Positions 2,349-21,404 of a stretch of 24,000 bases of DNA are shown piece by piece. Under the pieces are notes generated by a model. That model made no database searches. It was not told where the DNA came from and saw only the letters and a list, made by a program, of their open reading frames with translations. This stretch comes from an uncultured Actinomycetota bacterium (GTDB lineage: Bacteria; Actinomycetota; Actinomycetes; Propionibacteriales; Nocardioidaceae). Location of the stretch: positions 148,159 to 172,158 of the forward strand of contig CAVUEG010000001.1 in NCBI GenBank assembly GCA_963740525.1. Reading direction: 5' to 3'. Both the position numbers and the translations under genes were made by a program. Each line of letters starts with the position of its first letter. The stretch's first letter is position 1.

Positions 2349-4514
2349 GTCGCACCGTCCCGCTCGCCGAGATGCAGCAGATCGTGGAGGGCCGCCACGG
2401 TCAGCCACACACCATCCTCGGCCCCCACCCGCTCGACGGTGTCGTCACCTTCCGCGTCTTCAAGCCACTGGCCGAGTCCGTCGCGGTGGTTCACGGCGAC
2501 ACCCGCACCGAGCTCACCCATGAGCACGAGGGCATCTGGGCCGGCGACCTCGAGGCAGCCGACGTGCCCGACTACCGCGTCGAGGTCACCTACGCGGGCG
2601 CTCCGCCGGTGACCGTGGACGACCCCTACCGCTACCTGCCCACGCTCGGCGAGATCGACATCCACCTGATCAACGAGGGACGGCACGAGCGGCTCTGGGA
2701 CGTGCTCGGCGCGCACGTCCACACCTACGACGGCCCCACCGGCTCCGTGACCGGCACCGCATTCGCGGTGTGGGCCCCGAACGCCAAGGGCATCCGGGTG
2801 AAGGGCGACTTCAACAGCTGGGACGGCCGCGAGCACCCGATGCGCCAGCTCGGCACCTCGGGCGTCTGGGAGCTGTTCGTCCCCGATGTCGTGCAGTGGC
2901 ACGAAGTACAAGTACATCGTCCTGGGTGCCGACGACGCCTGGCGCGAGAAGGCCGACCCGATGGCCTTCCAGTCGGAGATCGCCCCGGCCACCTCCTCGG
3001 TCGTCTTCGCCTCGAGCCATCAGTGGAGCGACCAGGACTGGATGGCCGCTCGCGCCAACCAGACCGGCATGCACGCGCGCCCGCTCTCGGTCTACGAGGT
3101 GCACCTGAACTCCTGGCGCCGCGACCGCTCGTACGTCGACCTGGCCGACGACCTGGTCGGCTACGTCGCCGACCTGGGCTTCACCCACGTCGAGCTGATG
3201 CCGGTGATGCAGCACCCATTCGGCGGCTCGTGGGGCTACCACGTGACGTCGTACTTCGCTGCGGACTCCCGGCTCGGCGACCCCGACGGTCTGCGCTACC
3301 TGATCGACCGGCTGCACCAGGCCGGCGTCGGCGTGATCCTGGACTGGGTTCCCGGGCACTTCGCGACCGACGAGTGGGCGCTGGCCCGCTTCGACGGTAC
3401 GCCGCTCTACGAGGACCCGAACCCGCAGCGCGGGTGGCACAAGGAGTGGGGCTCCCACATCTTCAACTTCGGGCGCAAGGAGGTCCGCAACTACCTCGTC
3501 GCCAACGCGCTCTTCTGGCTCGAGGAGTTCCACGCGGACGGGCTCCGCGTCGACGGTGTGGCCTCGATGCTCTACCTCGACTACTCCCGCGAGCCGGGCG
3601 AGTGGTCCCCCAACGTGTACGGCGGCCGGGAGAACCTCGAGGCGGTCCAGTTCCTCCAGGAGATGAACGCCACCGTCTACAAGCGGGTCCCCGGGGCGAT
3701 GACGATCGCGGAGGAGTCGACCTCGTGGCCCGGGGTGACCCGGGCGACGAGCGACGGCGGCCTGGGCTTCGGCTTCAAGTGGAACATGGGGTGGATGCAC
3801 GACACCCTCGGCTACGTCGAGAACGAGCCCGTGCACCGCAGCTATCACCACGGTCAGATGACGTTCTCGCTCGTCTACGCGTGGTCGGAGAACTACCTGC
3901 TGCCGATCAGCCACGACGAGGTCGTACACGGCAAGGGCTCCCTGTTGCGCAAGATGCCCGGGGACCGCTGGCAGCAGCTGGCGAACCTCCGCAACTACCT
4001 GGCATTCATGTGGGCGCACCCCGGCAAGCAGCTGATCTTCATGGGTTCGGAGTTCGGCCAGGAGTCCGAGTGGGCCGAGGCTCGCGAGCTCGACTGGTGG
4101 CTGCTCGACCATGTGGAGCACCGCGGGGTGCAGTCCCTGGTGCGAGACCTCAACCGGGTCTACGCAGAGACTGCCGCACTGTGGTCCCAGGACACCGACC
4201 CAGCCGGGTTCGAGTGGCTCGACGCCAACGACGCCGACCGCAACGTGTTCGGCTTCGTCCGCAAGGCGTCCGGAGACCAACCGCCGCTGGTGTGCCTGGC
4301 GAACTTCTCCGCCATCCCGCACGAGGGCTACACCGTGGGGTTCCCCCACGCCGGCGAGTGGCGCGAGGTCATGAACACCGACGCCGAGACCTACTCCGGG
4401 TCGGGGGTCGGCAACCTGGGGGTCGTGACCGCGACGGAGACGCCGAGCCATGGTCAGCCCGCCTCGGCCACGCTCCGGCTGCCTCCCCTCGGAACTCTCT
4501 GGCTGGCGCCCTGA
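2345..4514 (+). pseudogene. glgB: 1,4-alpha-glucan branching enzyme GlgB, interrupted by one frame break near 2894 (real frameshift or sequencing error)
   Basis: The N-terminal ~183 aa lie in the frame of ATG 2345 (MSRTVPLAEMQQIVEGRHGQPH...[29 protein letters not shown]). The rest lies in the +1 frame ([22 protein letters not shown]...[13 protein letters not shown]...[15 protein letters not shown]...[10 protein letters not shown]...[12 protein letters not shown]) and ends at TGA 4512-4514. The switch falls between 2891 and 2897. Total length is 2170 nt, which is 1 mod 3. ATG 2345 overlaps the mak stop (ATGA). Confidence 0.85.
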
Positions 4515-4527
4515 CTAGGGTCGACCC

Positions 4528-5604
4528 ATGAGCGCCCCGGAGCCACAGCCCGAGCTCACCGACGGCGTGGTGACCCTGCGGGCCTGGCGTGACGACGACG
4601 TCGAGGCCGCCGTCGCCGGTCACGACGAGGAGATCGCGCACTGGTTCGGCTGGCCGGGCCAGCGACCGACCCCCGGGAGGATGCAAGCGTCTGTCGATTC
4701 CTGGCGGCAGGGGTACGCCGACAACCGGTCCGTGGTCGCTTTCGTGATCGTGCACGACACCGAGGTCGCCGGCAGCATCGACATCCGCGCCATCGGGGAG
4801 GGGACCGGCCACGTCTCCTGGGCGCTGTACGCCGGCCACCGGGGTCACGGCTACGCCACCCGGGCGCTGCGGCTCCTGTGCGACTACGCCCTGGCCGAGC
4901 TCGGGATGACCCGCGTCGAGGCCAAGGTCGAGCCGGGGAACCAGGCCTCGCTGCGCGTCGCCACGCGAGCCGGGATGCGCCGCGAGGGCGTGCGAAGAGT
5001 GGCGCCGGGCTCAGGCGACCGGGCCGAGACGACCGAGTACGTCCTGTTCTCACGGCTCGTCTCTGATCCCCCGCTGGAGGAGCCCGAGGCCTTCCGGGCC
5101 CTGTTGAACTCCTTCCTGCCGCGCAAGCGAGCGATCAGCCAGATGCTGATCCGCGACGACACCGGCCGGGTGCTGCTGTGCCAGCTCACCTACAAGCGCG
5201 ACTGGGACCTGCCCGGCGGGGTCGTCGAGGTCGGGGAGTCGCCGCAGCTGGCCGTCGCCCGCGAGGTCGAGGAGGAGCTCGCCCTGACCGTGCCGGCAGG
5301 ACGGCTGTTGCTGACCGACTGGCTGCCGGCCTGGAGCGGCTGGGACGACGCGGTCTGCCTGGTCTTCGACGGCGGGACTCACGACCCGGCGATCGTCGAG
5401 GACATCGTGCACGAGGCCCGCGAGATCCGGGGCGCCGAGTTCTGCACCGCTGAGGAGGTGCGTGCCCGGTGCGCCGACTTCACCGCCCGCCGGATCGCGG
5501 CCGCGCTGGCGAACCTCGTCTCCGGCGGTCCGGCGTACACCGAGAGCGGACGCAGTCCCGACACGGCGGATCCCGACCCCTCAGACCGGCTGCGGACCGA
5601 TTGA
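4528..5604 (+). CDS. Two-domain protein: N-terminal GNAT (RimJ/RimL-like) N-acetyltransferase fused to C-terminal Nudix hydrolase, 358 aa
   Basis: This is a single uninterrupted ORF. Residues ~10-175 look like a GNAT fold (VTLRAWRDDDVEA..., HRGHGYATRALRLLCDYALAELGMTRVEAKVEPGNQASLRVATRAGMRREG). Residues ~215-240 carry a near-canonical Nudix box, GGVVEVGESPQLAVAREVEEELAL (GX5EX7REUXEEXGU with the last G replaced by A). Confidence 0.75.
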   Translation: MSAPEPQPELTDGVVTLRAWRDDDVEAAVAGHDEEIAHWFGWPGQRPTPGRMQASVDSWRQGYADNRSVVAFVIVHDTEVAGSIDIRAIGEGTGHVSWALYAGHRGHGYATRALRLLCDYALAELGMTRVEAKVEPGNQASLRVATRAGMRREGVRRVAPGSGDRAETTEYVLFSRLVSDPPLEEPEAFRALLNSFLPRKRAISQMLIRDDTGRVLLCQLTYKRDWDLPGGVVEVGESPQLAVAREVEEELALTVPAGRLLLTDWLPAWSGWDDAVCLVFDGGTHDPAIVEDIVHEAREIRGAEFCTAEEVRARCADFTARRIAAALANLVSGGPAYTESGRSPDTADPDPSDRLRTD

Positions 5605-5653
5605 GGGCGGGTCAACCCTGTCGGACCGCGAGCCAGCGGGGCAAGATCAGGGT

Positions 5654-8332
5654 GTGAGCGCCTACGTATTCGACTTCACCGACGGTGACAAGGACCAGAA
5701 GGATCTCCTCGGCGGCAAGGGGGCCAACCTCGCCGAGATGACGAACCTGGGACTACCGGTCCCGCCGGGGTTCACGATCACGACGGCGGCCTGCCTGGCC
5801 TACCTGGACCAGGGGCGCCTGCCCGACGGCCTCGCCGACGAGGTGACCGCGCACCTGGGCGGCGTCGAGAAGGCGATGGGACGCCGACTGGGCCAGGCAG
5901 ACGATCCCCTGCTCGTGTCGGTGCGGTCCGGCGCGAAGTTCTCGATGCCGGGGATGATGGAGACCGTTCTCAACGTCGGCCTCAACGACGAGTCGGTGAG
6001 CGGGCTTGCCGCAGTCTCCGGCGACGAGCGCTTCGCCCAGGACTCCTACCGGCGCCTGATCCAGATGTTCGGCTCCACCGTCCTGGGAGTCGAGTCCGAG
6101 GTGTTCTCCGCCGCCCTCGACTCGCTGAAGCAGGAGCGCGGCTCCGACAACGACCTCGACCTTGATGTCGACGCGCTGCGAGAGCTGGTCGCGACGTACC
6201 AGGAGCTGGTGCGTGAGCACGCGGGGCGGGACTTCCCCCAGGACCCGCGCGAGCAGCTCGACCTGGCGGTGCAGGCGGTCTTCGACTCCTGGAACACCGA
6301 CCGCGCGGTGCTCTACCGCCGCCAGGAGCGGATCCCCGACGACCTCGGCACCGCGGTCAACGTCCAGTCGATGGTCTTCGGCAACCAGGGCTCCGACTCC
6401 GGGTCCGGCGTGGCCTTCACCCGGGACCCCGCCAGCGGAGCCCAGGGCATCTACGGCGACTATCTCCAGAACGCCCAGGGCGAGGACGTCGTCGCCGGGA
6501 TCAGGAACACCGTCTCTCTCGCCGACCTGGCCGAGCTCGACCGCACCTCGTACGACGAGCTCGTCGCGATCATGGAGAAGCTCGAGAAGCACTACCACGA
6601 CATGTGCGACATCGAGTTCACCATCGAGCGCGGGAAGCTGTGGATGCTGCAGACGCGGGTCGGCAAGCGGACCCCCGAGGCGACGTTCCGGATCGCGGTC
6701 CACATGGCCGACGAAGAGCTGATCGACCTCGACGAGGCCGTACGCCGCACCAGTGGAGCGCAGCTGGCCCAGCTGATGTTCCCCAGCTTCGACGCGAAGG
6801 CCCAGCGAACCCTTCTCGCCAAGGGGATGAACGCATCCCCCGGCGCGGCGGTCGGGAGGGTGGTCTTCGACTCGGACACGGCGGTCGAGTGGGCCGAGCG
6901 CGGCGAGGACGTGATCCTGGTCCGCAAGGAGACCAACCCCGACGACCTGCGCGGCATGGTCGCCGCGCGCGGCATCCTGACCAGCCGCGGAGGCAAGACC
7001 TCGCACGCGGCCGTGGTCGCCCGCGGCATGGGACGCACCTGCGTGTGTGGCGCGGAGTCGCTGGACGTGAACAGTCGCGACCGGGAGTTCCGGGTGCGCG
7101 GCGGTGACATGGTGCGCGAGGGCGACCTGATCTCCATCGACGGGACCACCGGCGAGGTGTTCGCCGGGGCCGTCCCCGTGACCGACTCCTACATCGTGCG
7201 CCACTTCGAGGGTGAGCACGTCGAGCAGGACCTCGTGGTCTCCGTCGCGAAGATCATGGAGCGCGCCGACGACGCCCGGAGGCTCAGGGTGCGGGCCAAC
7301 GCCGACACCCCCGAGGACGCTGCCCGTGCCCGTCGCTTCGGCGCCGAGGGGATCGGCCTGTGCCGCACCGAGCACATGTTCCTCGGCGAGCGGCGCGCCC
7401 TGGTCGAGGACCTCATCGTCGCCGAGGACGAGGATTCCCAGCAGGCAGCTCTGGCCGCGCTCCTTCCCCTGCAGCGCAAGGACTTCGTCGAGATCCTGGA
7501 GGTGATGGACGGTCTCCCGGTCACGATCAGGCTGATCGACCCGCCGCTGCACGAGTTCCTGCCCGACTACACCGAGCTGTCGATCAAGGTCGCCGTCGAG
7601 GACGTGCGCGGCAAGCACAACAAGCGACAGCTGAAGCTCTTGGAGGCGGTCAAGCGACTGCACGAGCAGAACCCGATGCTGGGTCTGCGCGGGGTCCGGC
7701 TGGGCATCGTGATCCCGGGACTGTTCACGATGCAGGCACGCGCGATCCTCGAGGCCGCCGCAGAGCGGCTCGAGGCCGGAGGGGACCCCCAGCCCGAGAT
7801 CATGATCCCGCTGGTCGGCTCGGTCCGTGAGCTCGACCTGGTCCGCGAGCAGATCCTGGTCGAGGCCCAGTCGGTCGCGGAGGAGAAGGGCCGGAAGATC
7901 CCTCACCGGATCGGGACGATGATCGAGCTCCCCCGTGCCGCGCTCACGGCCGGACAGATCGCCGAGTCTGCGGAGTTCTTCTCCTTCGGCACCAACGACC
8001 TGACCCAGATGACGTGGGGCTTCTCCCGTGACGACGTGGAGGCTGCGTTCTTCTCGACCTACCTCGACCAGGGCGTCTTCGGTGTCTCGCCCTTCGAGTC
8101 GCTCGACGTCGAGGGCGTCGGCGAGCTGGTCAGGGTCGCGGTCGAGCGCGGTCGTCGTACGCGCCCGGACCTGCACCTGGGAATCTGCGGTGAGCACGGC
8201 GGTGACCCAGCCTCGATCCACTTCTTCGACGACGTGGGCCTCGACTACGTGTCCTGCTCCCCCTTCCGGGTCCCGGTGGCCCGGCTCGAGGCGGGACGCG
8301 CCACGCTCGGCGGCGAGCCGCCCCGGCAGTGA
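5654..8332 (+). CDS. ppdK: Pyruvate, phosphate dikinase, 892 aa
   Basis: GTG at 5654 is in the frame of ORF 5462..8332. PPDK blocks run from the first residues (VSAYVFDFTDGDKDQKDLLGGKGANLAEMTNLGLPVPPGFTITT). The catalytic-His region is GGKTSHAAVVARGMG. The PEP/pyruvate domain shows GLCRTEHMF and FFSFGTNDLTQMT...ICGEHGGDP. The upstream 64 codons are Arg/Pro-rich and overlap the previous gene. Confidence 0.92.
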   Translation: MSAYVFDFTDGDKDQKDLLGGKGANLAEMTNLGLPVPPGFTITTAACLAYLDQGRLPDGLADEVTAHLGGVEKAMGRRLGQADDPLLVSVRSGAKFSMPGMMETVLNVGLNDESVSGLAAVSGDERFAQDSYRRLIQMFGSTVLGVESEVFSAALDSLKQERGSDNDLDLDVDALRELVATYQELVREHAGRDFPQDPREQLDLAVQAVFDSWNTDRAVLYRRQERIPDDLGTAVNVQSMVFGNQGSDSGSGVAFTRDPASGAQGIYGDYLQNAQGEDVVAGIRNTVSLADLAELDRTSYDELVAIMEKLEKHYHDMCDIEFTIERGKLWMLQTRVGKRTPEATFRIAVHMADEELIDLDEAVRRTSGAQLAQLMFPSFDAKAQRTLLAKGMNASPGAAVGRVVFDSDTAVEWAERGEDVILVRKETNPDDLRGMVAARGILTSRGGKTSHAAVVARGMGRTCVCGAESLDVNSRDREFRVRGGDMVREGDLISIDGTTGEVFAGAVPVTDSYIVRHFEGEHVEQDLVVSVAKIMERADDARRLRVRANADTPEDAARARRFGAEGIGLCRTEHMFLGERRALVEDLIVAEDEDSQQAALAALLPLQRKDFVEILEVMDGLPVTIRLIDPPLHEFLPDYTELSIKVAVEDVRGKHNKRQLKLLEAVKRLHEQNPMLGLRGVRLGIVIPGLFTMQARAILEAAAERLEAGGDPQPEIMIPLVGSVRELDLVREQILVEAQSVAEEKGRKIPHRIGTMIELPRAALTAGQIAESAEFFSFGTNDLTQMTWGFSRDDVEAAFFSTYLDQGVFGVSPFESLDVEGVGELVRVAVERGRRTRPDLHLGICGEHGGDPASIHFFDDVGLDYVSCSPFRVPVARLEAGRATLGGEPPRQ

Positions 8333-8390
8333 GCCGACCCGTAGGTTGGTGTCAGTGGCACGTCACCTCAGGTTCGGACAGGGAGCAGAC

Positions 8391-9173
8391 ATGAGCACGC
8401 GCGACGGCACCTCAACGTCCACCGGCATCAGCCCCGAGCGCTTCGCGCGGCTGCGAGCCTGGAACCTCGGGCTGACGGCACTCCACCTGGCACAGGCCGT
8501 GGGGATCCTGCTGCTGGCGGGCACCTTCGCGATCACGGTCACGTCCTCCTTCCCCGAGGGACCTCCCGGGAGCGCAACCCCGGCGCCCGCGAGCCTGTTC
8601 GACGTCCGGATCGGGTGGGCGGTCGCGGTGTTCCTGGGCCTGGCTGCGCTCGACCACCTGCTGACCGCCACCGTGGCCCGCGGGCCGTACGAGCGGGACC
8701 TCCAGCGCGGCATCAACCGGTTCCGCTGGGTGGAGTACTCCGTCAGCGCCACCCTGATGGTGGTGCTGATCGGGTTCTACTCGGGGATCACCGGCATCAA
8801 CGCCGTGCTCGCCGTCATCGGCGCCAACGTCGCGATGATCCTGTTCGGGTGGCTCCAGGAGCTGATGAACCCGCCGGGACGCACCAGCACGACGATGCTG
8901 CCGTTCTGGTTCGGGACCCTCGCCGGGCTGGCTCCGTGGGCGTCGATCGCGGTCAACGTGCTGGGGTCCGAGACGGTGCCGGGCTTCGTCTACGGCATCG
9001 TGCTGGCCCAGGGGCTGCTCTTCTTCAGCTTCGGCCTCAACCAGTGGCTGCAGTACCGCGGAGTCGGTCGGTGGCGCGACTACGCGTTCGGGGAGACGGC
9101 GTACCTCGTGCTGAGCCTGGTGGCGAAGTCGCTGCTCGCCTGGCAGATCTTCGGTGGCTCACTCGCCGGCTGA
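8391..9173 (+). CDS. Heliorhodopsin (7-TM retinal protein of the heliorhodopsin family), 260 aa
   Basis: ATG at 8391 has GGGAG at 8381-8385, 5 nt upstream. There are seven hydrophobic segments. Family-specific blocks are present: FRWVEYSVS (Glu115, codon 8733-8735), MILFGWLQE, LPFWFG, VPGFVYGI, and YLVLSLVAKSLLAWQIFGG (Lys246, codon 9126-9128). His32 and His89 occupy the two conserved histidine positions. I recognised the family by recalled similarity to reference heliorhodopsin 48C12; no search was run. Confidence 0.85.
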   Translation: MSTRDGTSTSTGISPERFARLRAWNLGLTALHLAQAVGILLLAGTFAITVTSSFPEGPPGSATPAPASLFDVRIGWAVAVFLGLAALDHLLTATVARGPYERDLQRGINRFRWVEYSVSATLMVVLIGFYSGITGINAVLAVIGANVAMILFGWLQELMNPPGRTSTTMLPFWFGTLAGLAPWASIAVNVLGSETVPGFVYGIVLAQGLLFFSFGLNQWLQYRGVGRWRDYAFGETAYLVLSLVAKSLLAWQIFGGSLAG

Positions 9174-9185
9174 GGCACCCCTCAG
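9170..9185. terminator. Short hairpin CTGAGG-cacc-CCTCAG between convergent genes; possible weak bidirectional terminator
   Basis: A perfect 6-bp stem with a 4-nt loop is read directly from the sequence. The left arm contains the heliorhodopsin TGA (9171-9173). The right arm contains the minus-strand TGA of the YbbN-like gene (9182-9184). There is no U-tract. Confidence 0.25.
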
Positions 9186-10123
9186 AACAGTGCCGACGCG
9201 AGCGCCTGACGACCCTTGAGGACCCTCGGGTCGTCGTTGCCGACGGCCGCGAAGAGCCCGAGCAGGTGGTTGCGGGCGGCGTCGCGGTCGGCGTCGGTGG
9301 TACGACGCACCAGGTCGACGAGCCGCTTGAAGGCGTCGTCGACGTGCCCTCCGAGCAGGTCGAGGTCAGCCACCAGGATCTGGGCCTCGACGTCGTCGGG
9401 GTTCTCCGCGGCGGCGGACCGCGCGGCGGTCAGGTCGACCCCCTGCGTGCGCTGGAGCACCTTGGCCATCGCGAGACCGCCCGAGGCCTCGGTGTCGGCG
9501 GGGTTGCCGTCGACAAGCTTCTGGTACTCCGCGACGGCACGGTCGATGTCGCCTGCCTCGAGCGCATCCTGGGCCGGCTGGTAGCGCGGGTCGACCAGGT
9601 CCTCGGCTGCCACGTCCTCGTCGGTCGCGGCCGCGACGGTCCTCGGCTGGTGCCGCGCCGTCACGCCCTGGGCGGTGACCTGCTGCATGACCGAGGTCAG
9701 CGCGGTGCGGAGCTCCTCGAGGGGAGCCACCTGCTGGAACAGCGGCATGGGACGGCCGTCCATCACCAGCGCCACCATCGGGATCGACGGGATCTGCATC
9801 GCCTGCGCGATCTGGGCCGCCTCGTCGACGTCGATCCGGCCGAGCAGGAACCGCCCTTCGAACTCCTCCGACAGGGTCTGCAGGTCGTCGGCCAGGGTCA
9901 GACTTTCGGGCATCTTCGCCGCTGAATAGAAGACGAGCATCACCGGCGCGGTCATCGAGCTCTCCAGCACGGCCTGGAAGTTCTGCTCGGTGACGGTCAC
10001 GGCGTACGACCCGGTGGCTCCCCCAGCGCCGGCAGCACCCTGCCCCTGCGTGGCCGAGGGAGCGGGCTGCCGGAGAGCGGAGAGGTCGAAGGCGCCGGGA
10101 CGGGAGAACGGTTGCTGCGTCAT
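9182..10123 (-). CDS. Thioredoxin-fold plus TPR-like C-terminal domain protein (YbbN/CnoX-type co-chaperone), no CXXC motif, 313 aa
   Basis: The N-terminal half has a thioredoxin-like layout (VTEQNFQAVLESSMTAPVMLVFYSAAKMPESLTL...IPSIPMVALVMDGRP), with SAAKMPES where WCGPC would sit. The C-terminal half is helical-repeat and Ala/Asp-rich, like YbbN. AGGA lies 7 nt upstream of ATG 10123. Confidence 0.7.
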   Translation of the reverse strand: MTQQPFSRPGAFDLSALRQPAPSATQGQGAAGAGGATGSYAVTVTEQNFQAVLESSMTAPVMLVFYSAAKMPESLTLADDLQTLSEEFEGRFLLGRIDVDEAAQIAQAMQIPSIPMVALVMDGRPMPLFQQVAPLEELRTALTSVMQQVTAQGVTARHQPRTVAAATDEDVAAEDLVDPRYQPAQDALEAGDIDRAVAEYQKLVDGNPADTEASGGLAMAKVLQRTQGVDLTAARSAAAENPDDVEAQILVADLDLLGGHVDDAFKRLVDLVRRTTDADRDAARNHLLGLFAAVGNDDPRVLKGRQALASALF

Positions 10124-10132
10124 GCCCCAATC

Positions 10133-11351
10133 CTAGGGATCGCCCGCGAGCCCCAGCGCCAGGGCCTCCTCCCACAGCTCCTCACGCACGGCGGGGTGCG
10201 CGGAGCGCTCGATCAGCTGCCTGGCCTGGGCTCGCTGGTCGTGGCCGTAGATCTCGGCCGTGCCCTGCTCGGTCACGACCGCCGACATCTGGAAGGAGGT
10301 CACCGGCTCGTCCACCATGGGCACGATCGTCGAGCAGTCCGCCTTCGGATGCCACGACCGCAGGGCGATCAAGGCCTGGCCCCCGGCGCTGTGCAGGGCA
10401 CCGACGATGAAGTCGGTCTGCCCGCCGAAGCCGGAGTGGATGCGGGCGTTGATCCGTGAGGCGTTGGCCTGTCCGAAGAGGTCCACCTGGAGCGCCGTGT
10501 TGATGCTGGTCATCGCCGGGTTGCCCGCGATCAGGGCCGGGTCGTTGGTCTTCTCGGTCCGCTGCATCAGCACCCGGTCGTTGCCGTCGACCCAGGCCAG
10601 CAGCTCGGGGGACCCGAACACGAACGACGTCACGACCGGGACGTCGGGGTCGAGCGCACCCGCGCGTTCGAGTTCCAGCACGCTGTCGCTGAACATCTCC
10701 GTCCAGATCCGCAGCCCCCGCCGCCCGCTCAGACCACGCATGGTGGCGTCCGGGACCGCCCCGATCCCGGCCTGGAGCGTGGCGCCGTCCGGGACCCGGC
10801 CCGCGACCTGGGCGCCGATCTCGGCCGCGGTCTCGTCGACCGGCACGGGCGGAGCGTCGGCCAGTGGCTCGTCGGCCTCGACGAGCAGGTCGATGTCCCG
10901 CACCGGCACCAGAGCGTCCCCCCGGGTGAAGGGCAGGTTCCGGTTCACCTGGGCCACGACCCGGCCTCCGCGTCGGCGTACCGCGTCCAGAGCGGCCGGG
11001 GAGCACGTTGACCTCGACTCCCAGGGAGACCATCCCGTCACGGGGCGGCGTGGTGTGCACGAGGACGAGGTCGGGAGGCTGGTGGGCCGCGAAGAGCCGG
11101 GGAACCATCGAGAGCCGTGCCGGGACGTAGCTCAGCCGCGGGCTCCGGCGCATGCCCGGGCCGACGAACGGCGTCTCGAGCACGACGCCCTCGCGGTCCG
11201 GCACGCCGACCTGGGCGTTGAGCATCCAGAGGCGGTACTCGTCCAGACCCTGGTCGAGCAGCCGGAGCGTGTGCCACGGCGTCGCGTGGTTGCCGGTGAC
11301 GACCAGACGCGGGTTAGCCGGCAGGGACGCGAGCACGCTGGTCAGATCCAC
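10133..11351 (-). pseudogene. Acetyl-CoA hydrolase/transferase family enzyme (4-hydroxybutyrate/butyryl-CoA:acetate CoA-transferase-like), one frame break near 10996
   Basis: The N-terminal ~117 aa lie in the frame of GTG 11351 (MDLTSVLASLPANPRLVVTGNHATPWHTLRLL...RDGMVSLGVEVNVLP). The rest lies in the frame of ORF 10133..11041 (AALDAVRRRGGRVVAQVNRNLPFTRGDA...SGFGGQTDFIVGA...). The junction on the minus strand reads gtgctccccGGccgct, which looks like one extra base in a C/G run. Length is 1219 nt, which is 1 mod 3. Confidence 0.8.
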
Positions 11352-13166: not shown

Positions 13167-13757
13167 CTACTGGGCGTCCTCGGCGGAGCCGTCGCGACCG
13201 GCGGGGCCCGAGGTGTCGCCGGTCGAGCCCACCGGGCCCTGCGGGGCGGCCTCGAAGTCGCCGACGGCTTCCCGGACCGGCCTGAGCAGGGCGGAGAGCG
13301 AGCCGAGCTGTTCTGAGGAGAGCGTGCCGAGCGCGAACCTCGCGGTGACCAGATCGGCGGTCGCCGCCTCGACGAGCGCCCGGCCCGTGGACGTGATCCC
13401 GGCCAGCACCGCCCGCCCGTCCTGCGGATGGCGGCGCCGCTCGACCAGCCCCGCGGCCTCGAGCCGGTCGATGATCGAGGTGATGGACGTCGGGTGCACC
13501 TGGAGCCGCTCCCCCATCTTGCCCAGCGGCAGCTCGCCGGCCCGCGAGAAGGTGAGCAGCACCAGCGCCTCGTAGCGGGCGAAGGTCAGCCCGTGCGGCC
13601 TGAGGATCTCGTCGAGCTGGGCCAGGACGAGCTGCTGGACCCGCATCAGGGAGGTCACGGCATGCATCTGCTCGACCGCTCCCCAGCGCTGGCCCCACTG
13701 CCTTGCCGCCTCGTCGATCGGGTCGAACGGCAGTGTGCGTCGCTGCTTGCCCGGCAT
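13167..13757 (-). CDS. MarR family transcriptional regulator, 196 aa
   Basis: The winged-helix MarR pattern is present (LTFARYEALVLLTFSRAGELPLGKMGERLQVHPTSITSIIDRLEAAGLVERRRHPQDGRAVLAGITSTGRAL). The C-terminal tail is Gly/Ser/Pro-rich. Confidence 0.85.
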   Translation of the reverse strand: MPGKQRRTLPFDPIDEAARQWGQRWGAVEQMHAVTSLMRVQQLVLAQLDEILRPHGLTFARYEALVLLTFSRAGELPLGKMGERLQVHPTSITSIIDRLEAAGLVERRRHPQDGRAVLAGITSTGRALVEAATADLVTARFALGTLSSEQLGSLSALLRPVREAVGDFEAAPQGPVGSTGDTSGPAGRDGSAEDAQ

Positions 13758-20306: not shown

Positions 20307-21404
20307 TGGCGACCCCGGCCTCCCGGCGCAAGCCCGCCGGGGCGCCGGCCGAGAGCCCCGGCGCTCCGGGGAGCCCCCTCCTGCGGCACTCGCCCTTCTA
20401 CATCGGGTTCATCGGTGGCGCGGGGGCCCTGCTCGCCTTCTGGTTGGGCCAGCGGATCCTCTCCGTCGGCTCCGTGATCATCCTGGTCGTGGTGGCGATG
20501 TTCCTCGCCGTCGGGCTGGAGCCCGCCGTGCAGTTCCTGGCCCGGCACCGACTAAGGCGCCCGCACGCGGTGCTCGTGGTGATCGCGGTCGTGCTCCTGG
20601 CGCTCGCGTTGTTCGTGCTCGCGATCGCCCCGGTGATCGGCGACCAGGTCAGTGCGCTCACCAAGAACGCTCCCGGGTGGCTCGACCAGCTCCAGCACAA
20701 CGGCACGATCAAGGACCTCGATGCGAAGTACGACCTGATCGCCAAGGCGAAGGACTACATCGCCAGCGGCGACCTGGCCAAGCAGGCGTTCGGCGGGGTG
20801 CTCGGCTTCGGCCTGGCAGTGCTCGGCGCGCTGGTCAACGCCTTCCTGATCGTCGTCCTGACCCTCTACTTCCTGTCGTCACTGCCGGCGATCACGAAGT
20901 CGATGGTCTCCCTGGCCCCGGCCAGCCGCCGTGAGCGGGTCACCGTCCTGACCGAGCAGATCAAGTCGAGCGTGGGCGGCTACGTCTCGGGGGCCTTCAT
21001 CGTCGCCTTCTGCGCCGGAGTGACCTCGCTGGCGTTCCTGCTTCGTCGGGCTCGGGCAGTACGCCGTCGCCCTGGCGGTCGTCGTCGCGCTGCTCGACGT
21101 GATCCCGATGATCGGTGCGACCCTCGGCGCCGTGATCGTCTCCGCGATCGGCTTCGCCACGGACCCGAAGACCGGCATCGCCTGCGTGATCTTCTACATC
21201 GTCTACCAGCAGATCGAGAACTACGTGATCTACCCGCGGGTGATGAGCCGCTCCGTGGACATCCCCGGTGCGGTGATCGTGATCGCCGCCCTCGTGGGCG
21301 CCGGGCTGCTCGGCGTGGTCGGTGCGCTGCTGGCTATCCCCACCGCAGCCGCGATCCTGCTGCTGACCCGCGAGCTGTTCGTGCGCCGCCAGGATGCTCG
21401 CTAG
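20306..21404 (+). pseudogene. AI-2E family (PerM/YhhT, UPF0118) transporter (~365 aa if repaired), one frame break near 21041
   Basis: ATG 20306 overlaps the previous stop (TGATG). The first frame gives multi-TM sequence up to ...FCAGVTSLAFL. The +1 frame continues FVGLGQYAVALAVVVALLDVIPMIGATLGAVIVSAIGF...IFYIVYQQIENYVIYPRVMSRSVDIPGAVIVIAALVGAGLLGVVGALLAIP, which is the family signature region, to TAG 21402-21404. Length is 1099 nt, which is 1 mod 3. Confidence 0.8.

Follow-up and report, generated by a model that had tools for sequence, protein, structure and literature searches.

The analysed stretch of actinobacterial DNA, 24,000 nt in length and hereafter called the window, contains a heliorhodopsin (HeR) gene within a series of core-metabolism genes (Table 1). 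On the plus strand, the gene is preceded by the C-terminus of TreS, a maltokinase, GlgB, a fusion of a GNAT acetyltransferase with a NUDIX hydrolase and a pyruvate phosphate dikinase (PPDK), in this order. Beyond HeR, the minus strand encodes a thioredoxin-TPR protein (Trx-TPR, YbbN-like), an acetyl-CoA hydrolase/transferase, a methylmalonyl-CoA-mutase-family protein, a bPH_2 protein, MeaB and a thiolase. Farther along lie genes for an epimerase with a glyoxalase fold, a crotonyl-CoA-reductase-like dehydrogenase, a DivIVA-like protein, an AI-2E transporter, an alpha/beta-hydrolase and a 3-hydroxyacyl-CoA dehydrogenase. The metabolic character of this neighbourhood, which had been pointed out in the original prediction, is evident from the TreS/Mak/GlgB genes of the GlgE pathway, from PPDK and from a methylmalonyl/ethylmalonyl-CoA cluster. 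Genes for retinal synthesis were not seen in the 24-kb window.

The HeR reading frame runs uninterrupted on the plus strand from the ATG at 8391 to the TGA at 9171-9173, and the position of the start is supported by many 260-aa homologues that align starting with residue 1. All five sequence blocks that had been quoted for the intact 260-aa product were located in the translation, with FRWVEYS starting at residue 111, ILFGWLQE at 150, LPFWFG at 170, VPGFVYGI at 196 and LSLVAKSLLAWQIF at 241. The GGGAG that precedes the ATG by 5 nt was likewise found as described, and the third codon positions do resemble those of the surrounding genes (GC3 of 0.94 compared to 0.84-0.96 in the neighbours, at 70% GC for the window). 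The frame contains no homopolymer of five or more nucleotides.

Table 1 Features of the window around the heliorhodopsin gene, with positions counted from the first nucleotide of the window.
Feature	Position	Strand	Basis or remark
glgB frame break	~2883-2890		CCCC run
GNAT acetyltransferase-NUDIX hydrolase fusion	4528-5604	+	directly 3' of glgB
Pyruvate phosphate dikinase (PPDK)	5600-8332, start approximate	+	PPDK_N, PEP-utilizers, PEP-utilizers_C; frame plot from ~5596
Segment absent from syntenic relatives	8333-9181		849 nt, PPDK stop to Trx-TPR stop: 58-nt spacer, HeR, 8-nt spacer
GGGAG, Shine-Dalgarno-like motif	8381-8385	+	5 nt before HeR ATG, read directly
Heliorhodopsin (HeR) CDS, 260 aa and stop	8391-9173	+	ORF, motifs, HMM and PDB matches, model
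Ala85 codon	8643-8645	+	within HeR CDS
Asp88 codon	8652-8654	+	within HeR CDS
Glu115 codon	8733-8735	+	within HeR CDS
Lys246 codon	9126-9128	+	within HeR CDS
Inverted repeat CTGAGG-cacc-CCTCAG	9169-9184		6-bp arms; spans HeR and Trx-TPR stop codons
Thioredoxin-TPR (Trx-TPR, YbbN-like)	9182-10123	-	Thioredoxin and TPR_20/TPR_19; convergent, 3' of HeR
Acetyl-CoA hydrolase gene frame break	~10995-10999		GGGG run
Mutase gene frame break	~13170-13250
meaB frame breaks (three)	~15283, ~15218, ~14750
AI-2E transporter gene split	~21015-21045

Folding of the inverted-repeat and spacer regions was compared to that of shuffled sequences and yielded z-scores of -1.3 and -0.03. As this is no better than shuffled, we do not claim a terminator at the inverted repeat. 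A scan of the PPDK-HeR spacer detected neither a sigma-70-like promoter nor a terminator, and folding of both spacers was no more favourable than that of shuffled sequence. Since both genes are co-oriented and separated by 58 nt in which no terminator was detectable, PPDK and HeR may be co-transcribed, and a lineage-specific functional link could hence exist. Transcription of HeR could result from read-through from PPDK or start at an actinobacterial promoter that escaped recognition. No family-wide motif emerged from the 150-nt regions preceding 82 HeR starts. An AGGTT(N)GACA-like string occurs twice upstream of HeR in the window (8343-8385) and also upstream of HeR at three other loci (L004, L005 and L010), at differing distances from the start; it could be a chance occurrence or a promoter element.

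Family membership and predicted structure

The protein matched the Pfam model PF18761 (Heliorhodopsin) with 316.5 bits (E = 1.3e-94, cut-off 26.7) over profile positions 1-242 of 242, and the NCBIfam equivalog NF038020 ('heliorhodopsin HeR') with 260.7 bits (E = 1.2e-77, cut-off 100) over positions 1-244 of 244. These full-length matches, obtained in the search that the original prediction had proposed as a check, confirm its assignment to the heliorhodopsins. Among proteins of solved structure, the chains of 48C12 (6su3, 6uh3, 9ljj) were matched with E-values of about 3e-63 and the Thermoplasmatales HeR (6is6, 7clj) with about 1e-48. A word-indexed protein search returned 6,135 relatives at E ≤ 1e-10, many of which already carry the name 'heliorhodopsin HeR' (Streptomyces, Cellulomonas, Lapillicoccus, Nocardioidaceae), and a library of 50%-representatives contained 2,974 matching proteins at E ≤ 0.001. 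A 100% identical protein (P0001) is already present in NCBI and ENA. Full-length and nearly gapless alignments were obtained with 41 relatives at 76-83% identity, all key residues being retained. HeR hosts have been described as monoderm prokaryotes (Bulzu et al. 2021), and the host of the window agrees with this in its GC content of 70%, in an epimerase that falls into a cluster of at least 90% identity with Nocardioides and Marmoricola, and in the occurrence of the HeR relatives in Actinomycetota.

An AlphaFold2 model based on a 42-sequence alignment (pLDDT 87.3, pTM 0.84) contains the seven helices that had been expected from the hydrophobicity of the sequence (residues 15-42, 74-93, 110-130, 136-159, 170-192, 198-223 and 231-258) as well as an extracellular beta-hairpin in the loop between helices 1 and 2 (strands 47-51 and 68-73). 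Compared by Foldseek to solved HeRs (6su3, 6uh3, 6is6, 9ljj), the model reached TM-scores of 0.84-0.87 at an rmsd of about 2.1 Å, and this superposition, also suggested in the original prediction, placed the lysine and the counterion homologously. Type-1 rhodopsins gave TM-scores of about 0.5-0.65, the best of them about 0.6 at 12-17% identity, so that the predicted fold is that of a HeR. Lysine and arginine residues number 13 on the predicted cytoplasmic segments and 1 outside, a predicted distribution that fits the inverted topology with the N-terminus inside. Arginines are clustered in the region of cytoplasmic loop 1 (R97, R102, R106, R110, R112) and in the region of loop 3 (R223, R227, R229), with R164 in loop 2.

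The window HeR is about 46% identical over the 7TM core to 48C12, a freshwater actinobacterial HeR (6su3, 6su4, 6uh3, 9ljj; TM-score 0.84-0.87). It differs from 48C12 in a shorter loop between helices 5 and 6, in its high-GC host (about 70%) and in having no glutamine-synthetase neighbour. TaHeR from a Thermoplasmatales archaeon (6is6, 7u55, 7clj) shares the fold (TM-score 0.85-0.87) and the arrangement of counterion and lysine at 36% identity, but has an archaeal origin and a more divergent sequence.

Residues of the retinal pocket

In the alignment to 48C12, H32 corresponds to H23, H89 to H80, E115 to E107 and K246 to K241. K246 lies in the ungapped block LSLVAKS and is invariant in 42 relatives. 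E115, located in FRWVEYS, aligns to the glutamate of the RWxEY motif, and 85 of 94 diverse representatives have Glu at this position. These representatives are the near-full-length proteins among the best 150 of the 2,974 matches in the 50%-representative library. The roles that had been proposed for Lys246 as the retinal lysine, for Glu115 as the counterion and for His32 and His89 as the conserved pair are therefore in agreement with the 48C12 equivalents. Also in register are the other residues of the hydrogen-bond network described for 48C12 (PMC9726877), namely N25, Q35, Y100, R112, S119, E157, E235, S242 and W251, which correspond to the conserved 48C12 residues N16, Q26, Y92, R104, S111, E149, E230, S237 and W246. 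The network residues show no variation among the 42 close relatives and predominate across the 94 diverse representatives.

The subfamily signature by which the protein differs from 48C12 consists of Ala85 in place of S76 and Asp88 in place of F79, beside the equivalent of His80; neither residue varies among the 42 close relatives. In 48C12, S76 is one of three Schiff-base serines that were termed highly conserved, and QM/MM calculations assigned it to the proton-transfer path with a contribution of -9 nm to the absorption wavelength (PMC9726877). The original statement that every chromophore-critical residue is present thus holds for the lysine, the glutamate and both histidines, but not for this serine. 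Despite the replacement, the polar cluster at the Schiff base is represented by S119, S242, H32 and H89. Among the 94 diverse representatives, Ser occupies the S76 position in 44 and Ala in 38, and in the branch nearest to the window protein the Ala is usually paired with Asp88. Because the family is split in this way, Ser is not a defining residue at this site. We considered Ala85 as a functional lesion and rejected this on account of the 38 representatives with Ala, which indicate a subfamily trait rather than damage. Ala85 may slightly shift the colour or the kinetics of the M state, and the kinetics may thus differ from those of 48C12. The gene at 8391-9173 encodes a typical bacterial heliorhodopsin, belonging to the Ala85/Asp88 subfamily of high-GC actinobacteria, and adds one more member to a large known family.

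Comparison of loci

To evaluate the gene context, we compared two sets of loci. The HeR-anchored set comprised 80 genome loci with HeRs 70-82% identical to the window protein and the closest relatives (83-84% identity), 84 loci in total. The Trx-TPR-anchored set comprised 80 metagenome loci with Trx-TPR proteins of 57-73% identity.

Neither PPDK (searched within 6-10 kb) nor Trx-TPR was found near HeR in any of the 84 HeR-anchored loci. Within 6 kb of HeR in the 80 genome loci, the only traces of the metabolic neighbours of the window were two weak matches, obtained with bPH and thiolase as queries. The closest HeR relatives are preceded by unknown proteins of 297 aa and 162 aa and followed by MFS/nitrate reductase or acetyl-CoA carboxylase genes. 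Clustering of the ORFs within 4 kb of HeR at the 84 loci revealed no dominant shared neighbour. The largest cluster covered 14 of them, with an SDR-like motif in its longest ORF, and the next clusters, branched-chain ABC-permease-like and NAD-epimerase-like, covered six loci each; all of these labels were assigned by reading the sequences, not from Pfam. The SDR-like cluster echoes one of the ten HeR-partner groups defined by Cho et al. 2024 (PMC11109279), which are glutamine synthetase (GS), NAD+ synthetase, photolyase, MerR, TerC, ABC transporter, SDR, alpha/beta-hydrolase, DUF2177 and DUF2238. The adjacent genes of the window, co-oriented PPDK and convergent Trx-TPR, both fall outside these groups.

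The Trx-TPR-anchored loci retain the backbone TreS-Mak-GlgB-GNAT/NUDIX on one side and TrxTPR-(hydrolase/mutase)-bPH-MeaB-thiolase / epimerase-CCR on the other, and none of the 80 contains a HeR. The GNAT-NUDIX fusion keeps its place by the GlgE-pathway genes in most syntenic relatives. The slot between GNAT-NUDIX and Trx-TPR, 4528-10123 in the window, was readable in 37 loci among L086-L162. In eight of these (L086, L089, L093, L103, L106, L135, L137 and L160) PPDK adjoins Trx-TPR, with 13-114 nt between the ends of the tblastn hits. Two further loci (L145 and L153) contain PPDK together with a PIG-L deacetylase, the filler amounting to 849 and 912 nt, which is the size of the 849-nt HeR segment of the window. 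The slot is without PPDK in 27 of the 37 loci and is occupied by unrelated cargo of about 0-3 kb, for example CysZ/EI24, LysR and EamA genes (L118), an amino-acid permease (L128), an acyltransferase (L104) or a Crp-like regulator (L155). The interval between GNAT-NUDIX and Trx-TPR is thus a hotspot of gene turnover within an actinobacterial block that is otherwise conserved.

The variability of this slot, together with the lack of HeR from all 80 syntenic loci, identifies HeR as a lineage-specific single-gene gain at 8333-9181. The gene had been regarded as native; its GC3 agrees with that of the neighbours, but the comparison speaks for a gain at this site. Rfam, tRNA and repeat searches revealed no signs of a mobile element, there is no mobile-element gene at the insertion, and no target-site duplication is visible at the junctions. 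The original prediction had further held the genomic context to be informative. Given the outcome of both independent comparisons, HeR-anchored and Trx-TPR-anchored, the context is uninformative with regard to HeR function. Judged from these gene arrangements, HeR and PPDK most likely adjoin by coincidence, and a partner of the HeR is probably encoded elsewhere rather than next door.

Proposed function and alternative explanations

Heliorhodopsins had been introduced as proteins without an agreed physiological role, which is out of date. Light-dependent regulation by HeRs has been published for glutamine synthetase (AbHeR, PMC9529153), for a photolyase (TfHeR, PMC9769723) and for the ABC exporter OmrDE (OcHeR, PMC11109279). 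In these three systems positive charges of the cytoplasmic loops are determinants of partner binding, and pumping was not seen. The window HeR resembles these non-pumping bacterial HeRs in retaining Arg clusters in all three loops, and OcHeR also originates from a high-GC actinobacterium. The systems differ in that the published partner is an adjacent, co-oriented gene of a recurrent group, whereas the PPDK of the window belongs to no such group and is not conserved beside HeR.

By analogy with the characterised proteins, all-trans-retinal would be bound at K246 in helix 7 as a protonated Schiff base, with E115 in helix 3 as the counterion. The pigment would be expected to absorb near 550 nm (OcHeR absorbs at 554 nm, 48C12 at 551 nm). 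Upon illumination, the proton would pass to E115 and from there to the His pair and would never leave the protein. A slow photocycle free of ion pumping can be expected. A long-lived photoproduct may then alter the cytoplasmic face, and the Arg-rich cytoplasmic loops may bind and modulate a partner protein. Overall, a non-pumping retinal photosensor or light-dependent activator, acquired by single-gene gain and adjacent to PPDK by coincidence, is very likely the best explanation of the locus.

A functional coupling to the upstream PPDK, in which HeR would be co-transcribed with this enzyme, modulate it in the light and thereby tune the pyruvate/PEP node, appears improbable. It would be in line with the shared strand, the 58-nt gap in which no terminator-like structure was detected, the origin of the published HeR partners from adjacent co-oriented genes, the connection that Bulzu et al. 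draw between HeRs and carbon and nitrogen metabolism, and the Arg-rich loops. Yet PPDK is missing from the surroundings of HeR at all 84 loci, the closest relatives included, ten syntenic relatives carry PPDK in the same position and have no HeR, and PMC11109279 does not list PPDK in its ten recurrent groups of neighbours. In addition, the gap exceeds the range of -20 to +30 nt that is cited in this paper as typical of operon partners. Slightly less probable again is the more specific version according to which HeR was captured 3' of PPDK in this lineage and, being co-transcribed, became its light-dependent activator. If there were such a coupling, PPDK would constitute a new class of partner beside glutamine synthetase, photolyase and ABC exporters, and its activation would extend the short list of directly rhodopsin-controlled enzymes to the pyruvate/PEP node. 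The chances are smaller still that HeR acts together with the convergent Trx-TPR against light-induced oxidative stress, as might be supposed from the 8 nt between the genes and from the finding of Bulzu et al. that redox proteins, thioredoxin among them, are enriched near HeRs. Convergent genes cannot share a transcript, the 80 loci in which Trx-TPR is a conserved part of the block are all devoid of HeR, and Trx-TPR accompanies HeR at none of the 84 HeR loci.

Even less credit is given to a light-driven or light-gated proton transporter similar to viral V2HeR3 in place of a sensor. Proton transport has been reported for some HeRs including a viral one, as cited in PMC11109279 and PMC12873467, and the invariant Asp88 beside His89 is an additional carboxylate; however, the bacterial HeRs 48C12, AbHeR and OcHeR showed no ion transport when tested, and the window HeR has the same network as 48C12 at about 46% identity. 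We regard it as least likely of all that the HeR gene is silent, decaying or mis-assembled. This suspicion could arise from frame breaks, at least seven within the 24 kb, that interrupt conserved genes nearby. They became apparent when intact ORFs of syntenic relatives were aligned to the window (Table 1). As these breaks accumulate in otherwise well-conserved core genes, they probably represent indels of a long-read assembly rather than pseudogenes or decay. Three of them sit at runs of four G or C. Many of the related MAGs are long-contig assemblies, and a similar split is seen in related contigs (narG, L082 compared to L081). A doubt about the HeR frame itself was rejected in view of its full-length alignment to the 41 relatives with conserved key residues; moreover, the frame is uninterrupted and uniform in GC3, it is free of long homopolymers, and PPDK and Trx-TPR both end normally at the junctions.

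The lesson for the clade of the window HeR is that the neighbourhood is an unreliable guide to function, since close relatives reside in unrelated contexts and the copy in the window sits in a slot with a turnover of unrelated single genes. Its sequence can reasonably represent the Ala85/Asp88 subfamily of high-GC actinobacteria and is otherwise mainly of value for annotation.

The HeR relatives that are 70-82% identical to the window protein come from Acidimicrobiia, Thermoleophilia/Gaiellales and Actinomycetes. By comparison, Trx-TPR of the syntenic relatives reaches no more than 57-73% identity, and their PPDK 71-79% over long alignments. The high identity of HeR across classes, together with its scattered contexts, suggests horizontal spread or an unusually strong constraint on HeR. 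Three MAGs contain two HeR loci on separate contigs (L005/L010 in CAYPYK01, L045/L052 in DASRUA01 and L032/L061 in REDU01), and paralogous HeR copies per genome thus seem to be common in this clade.
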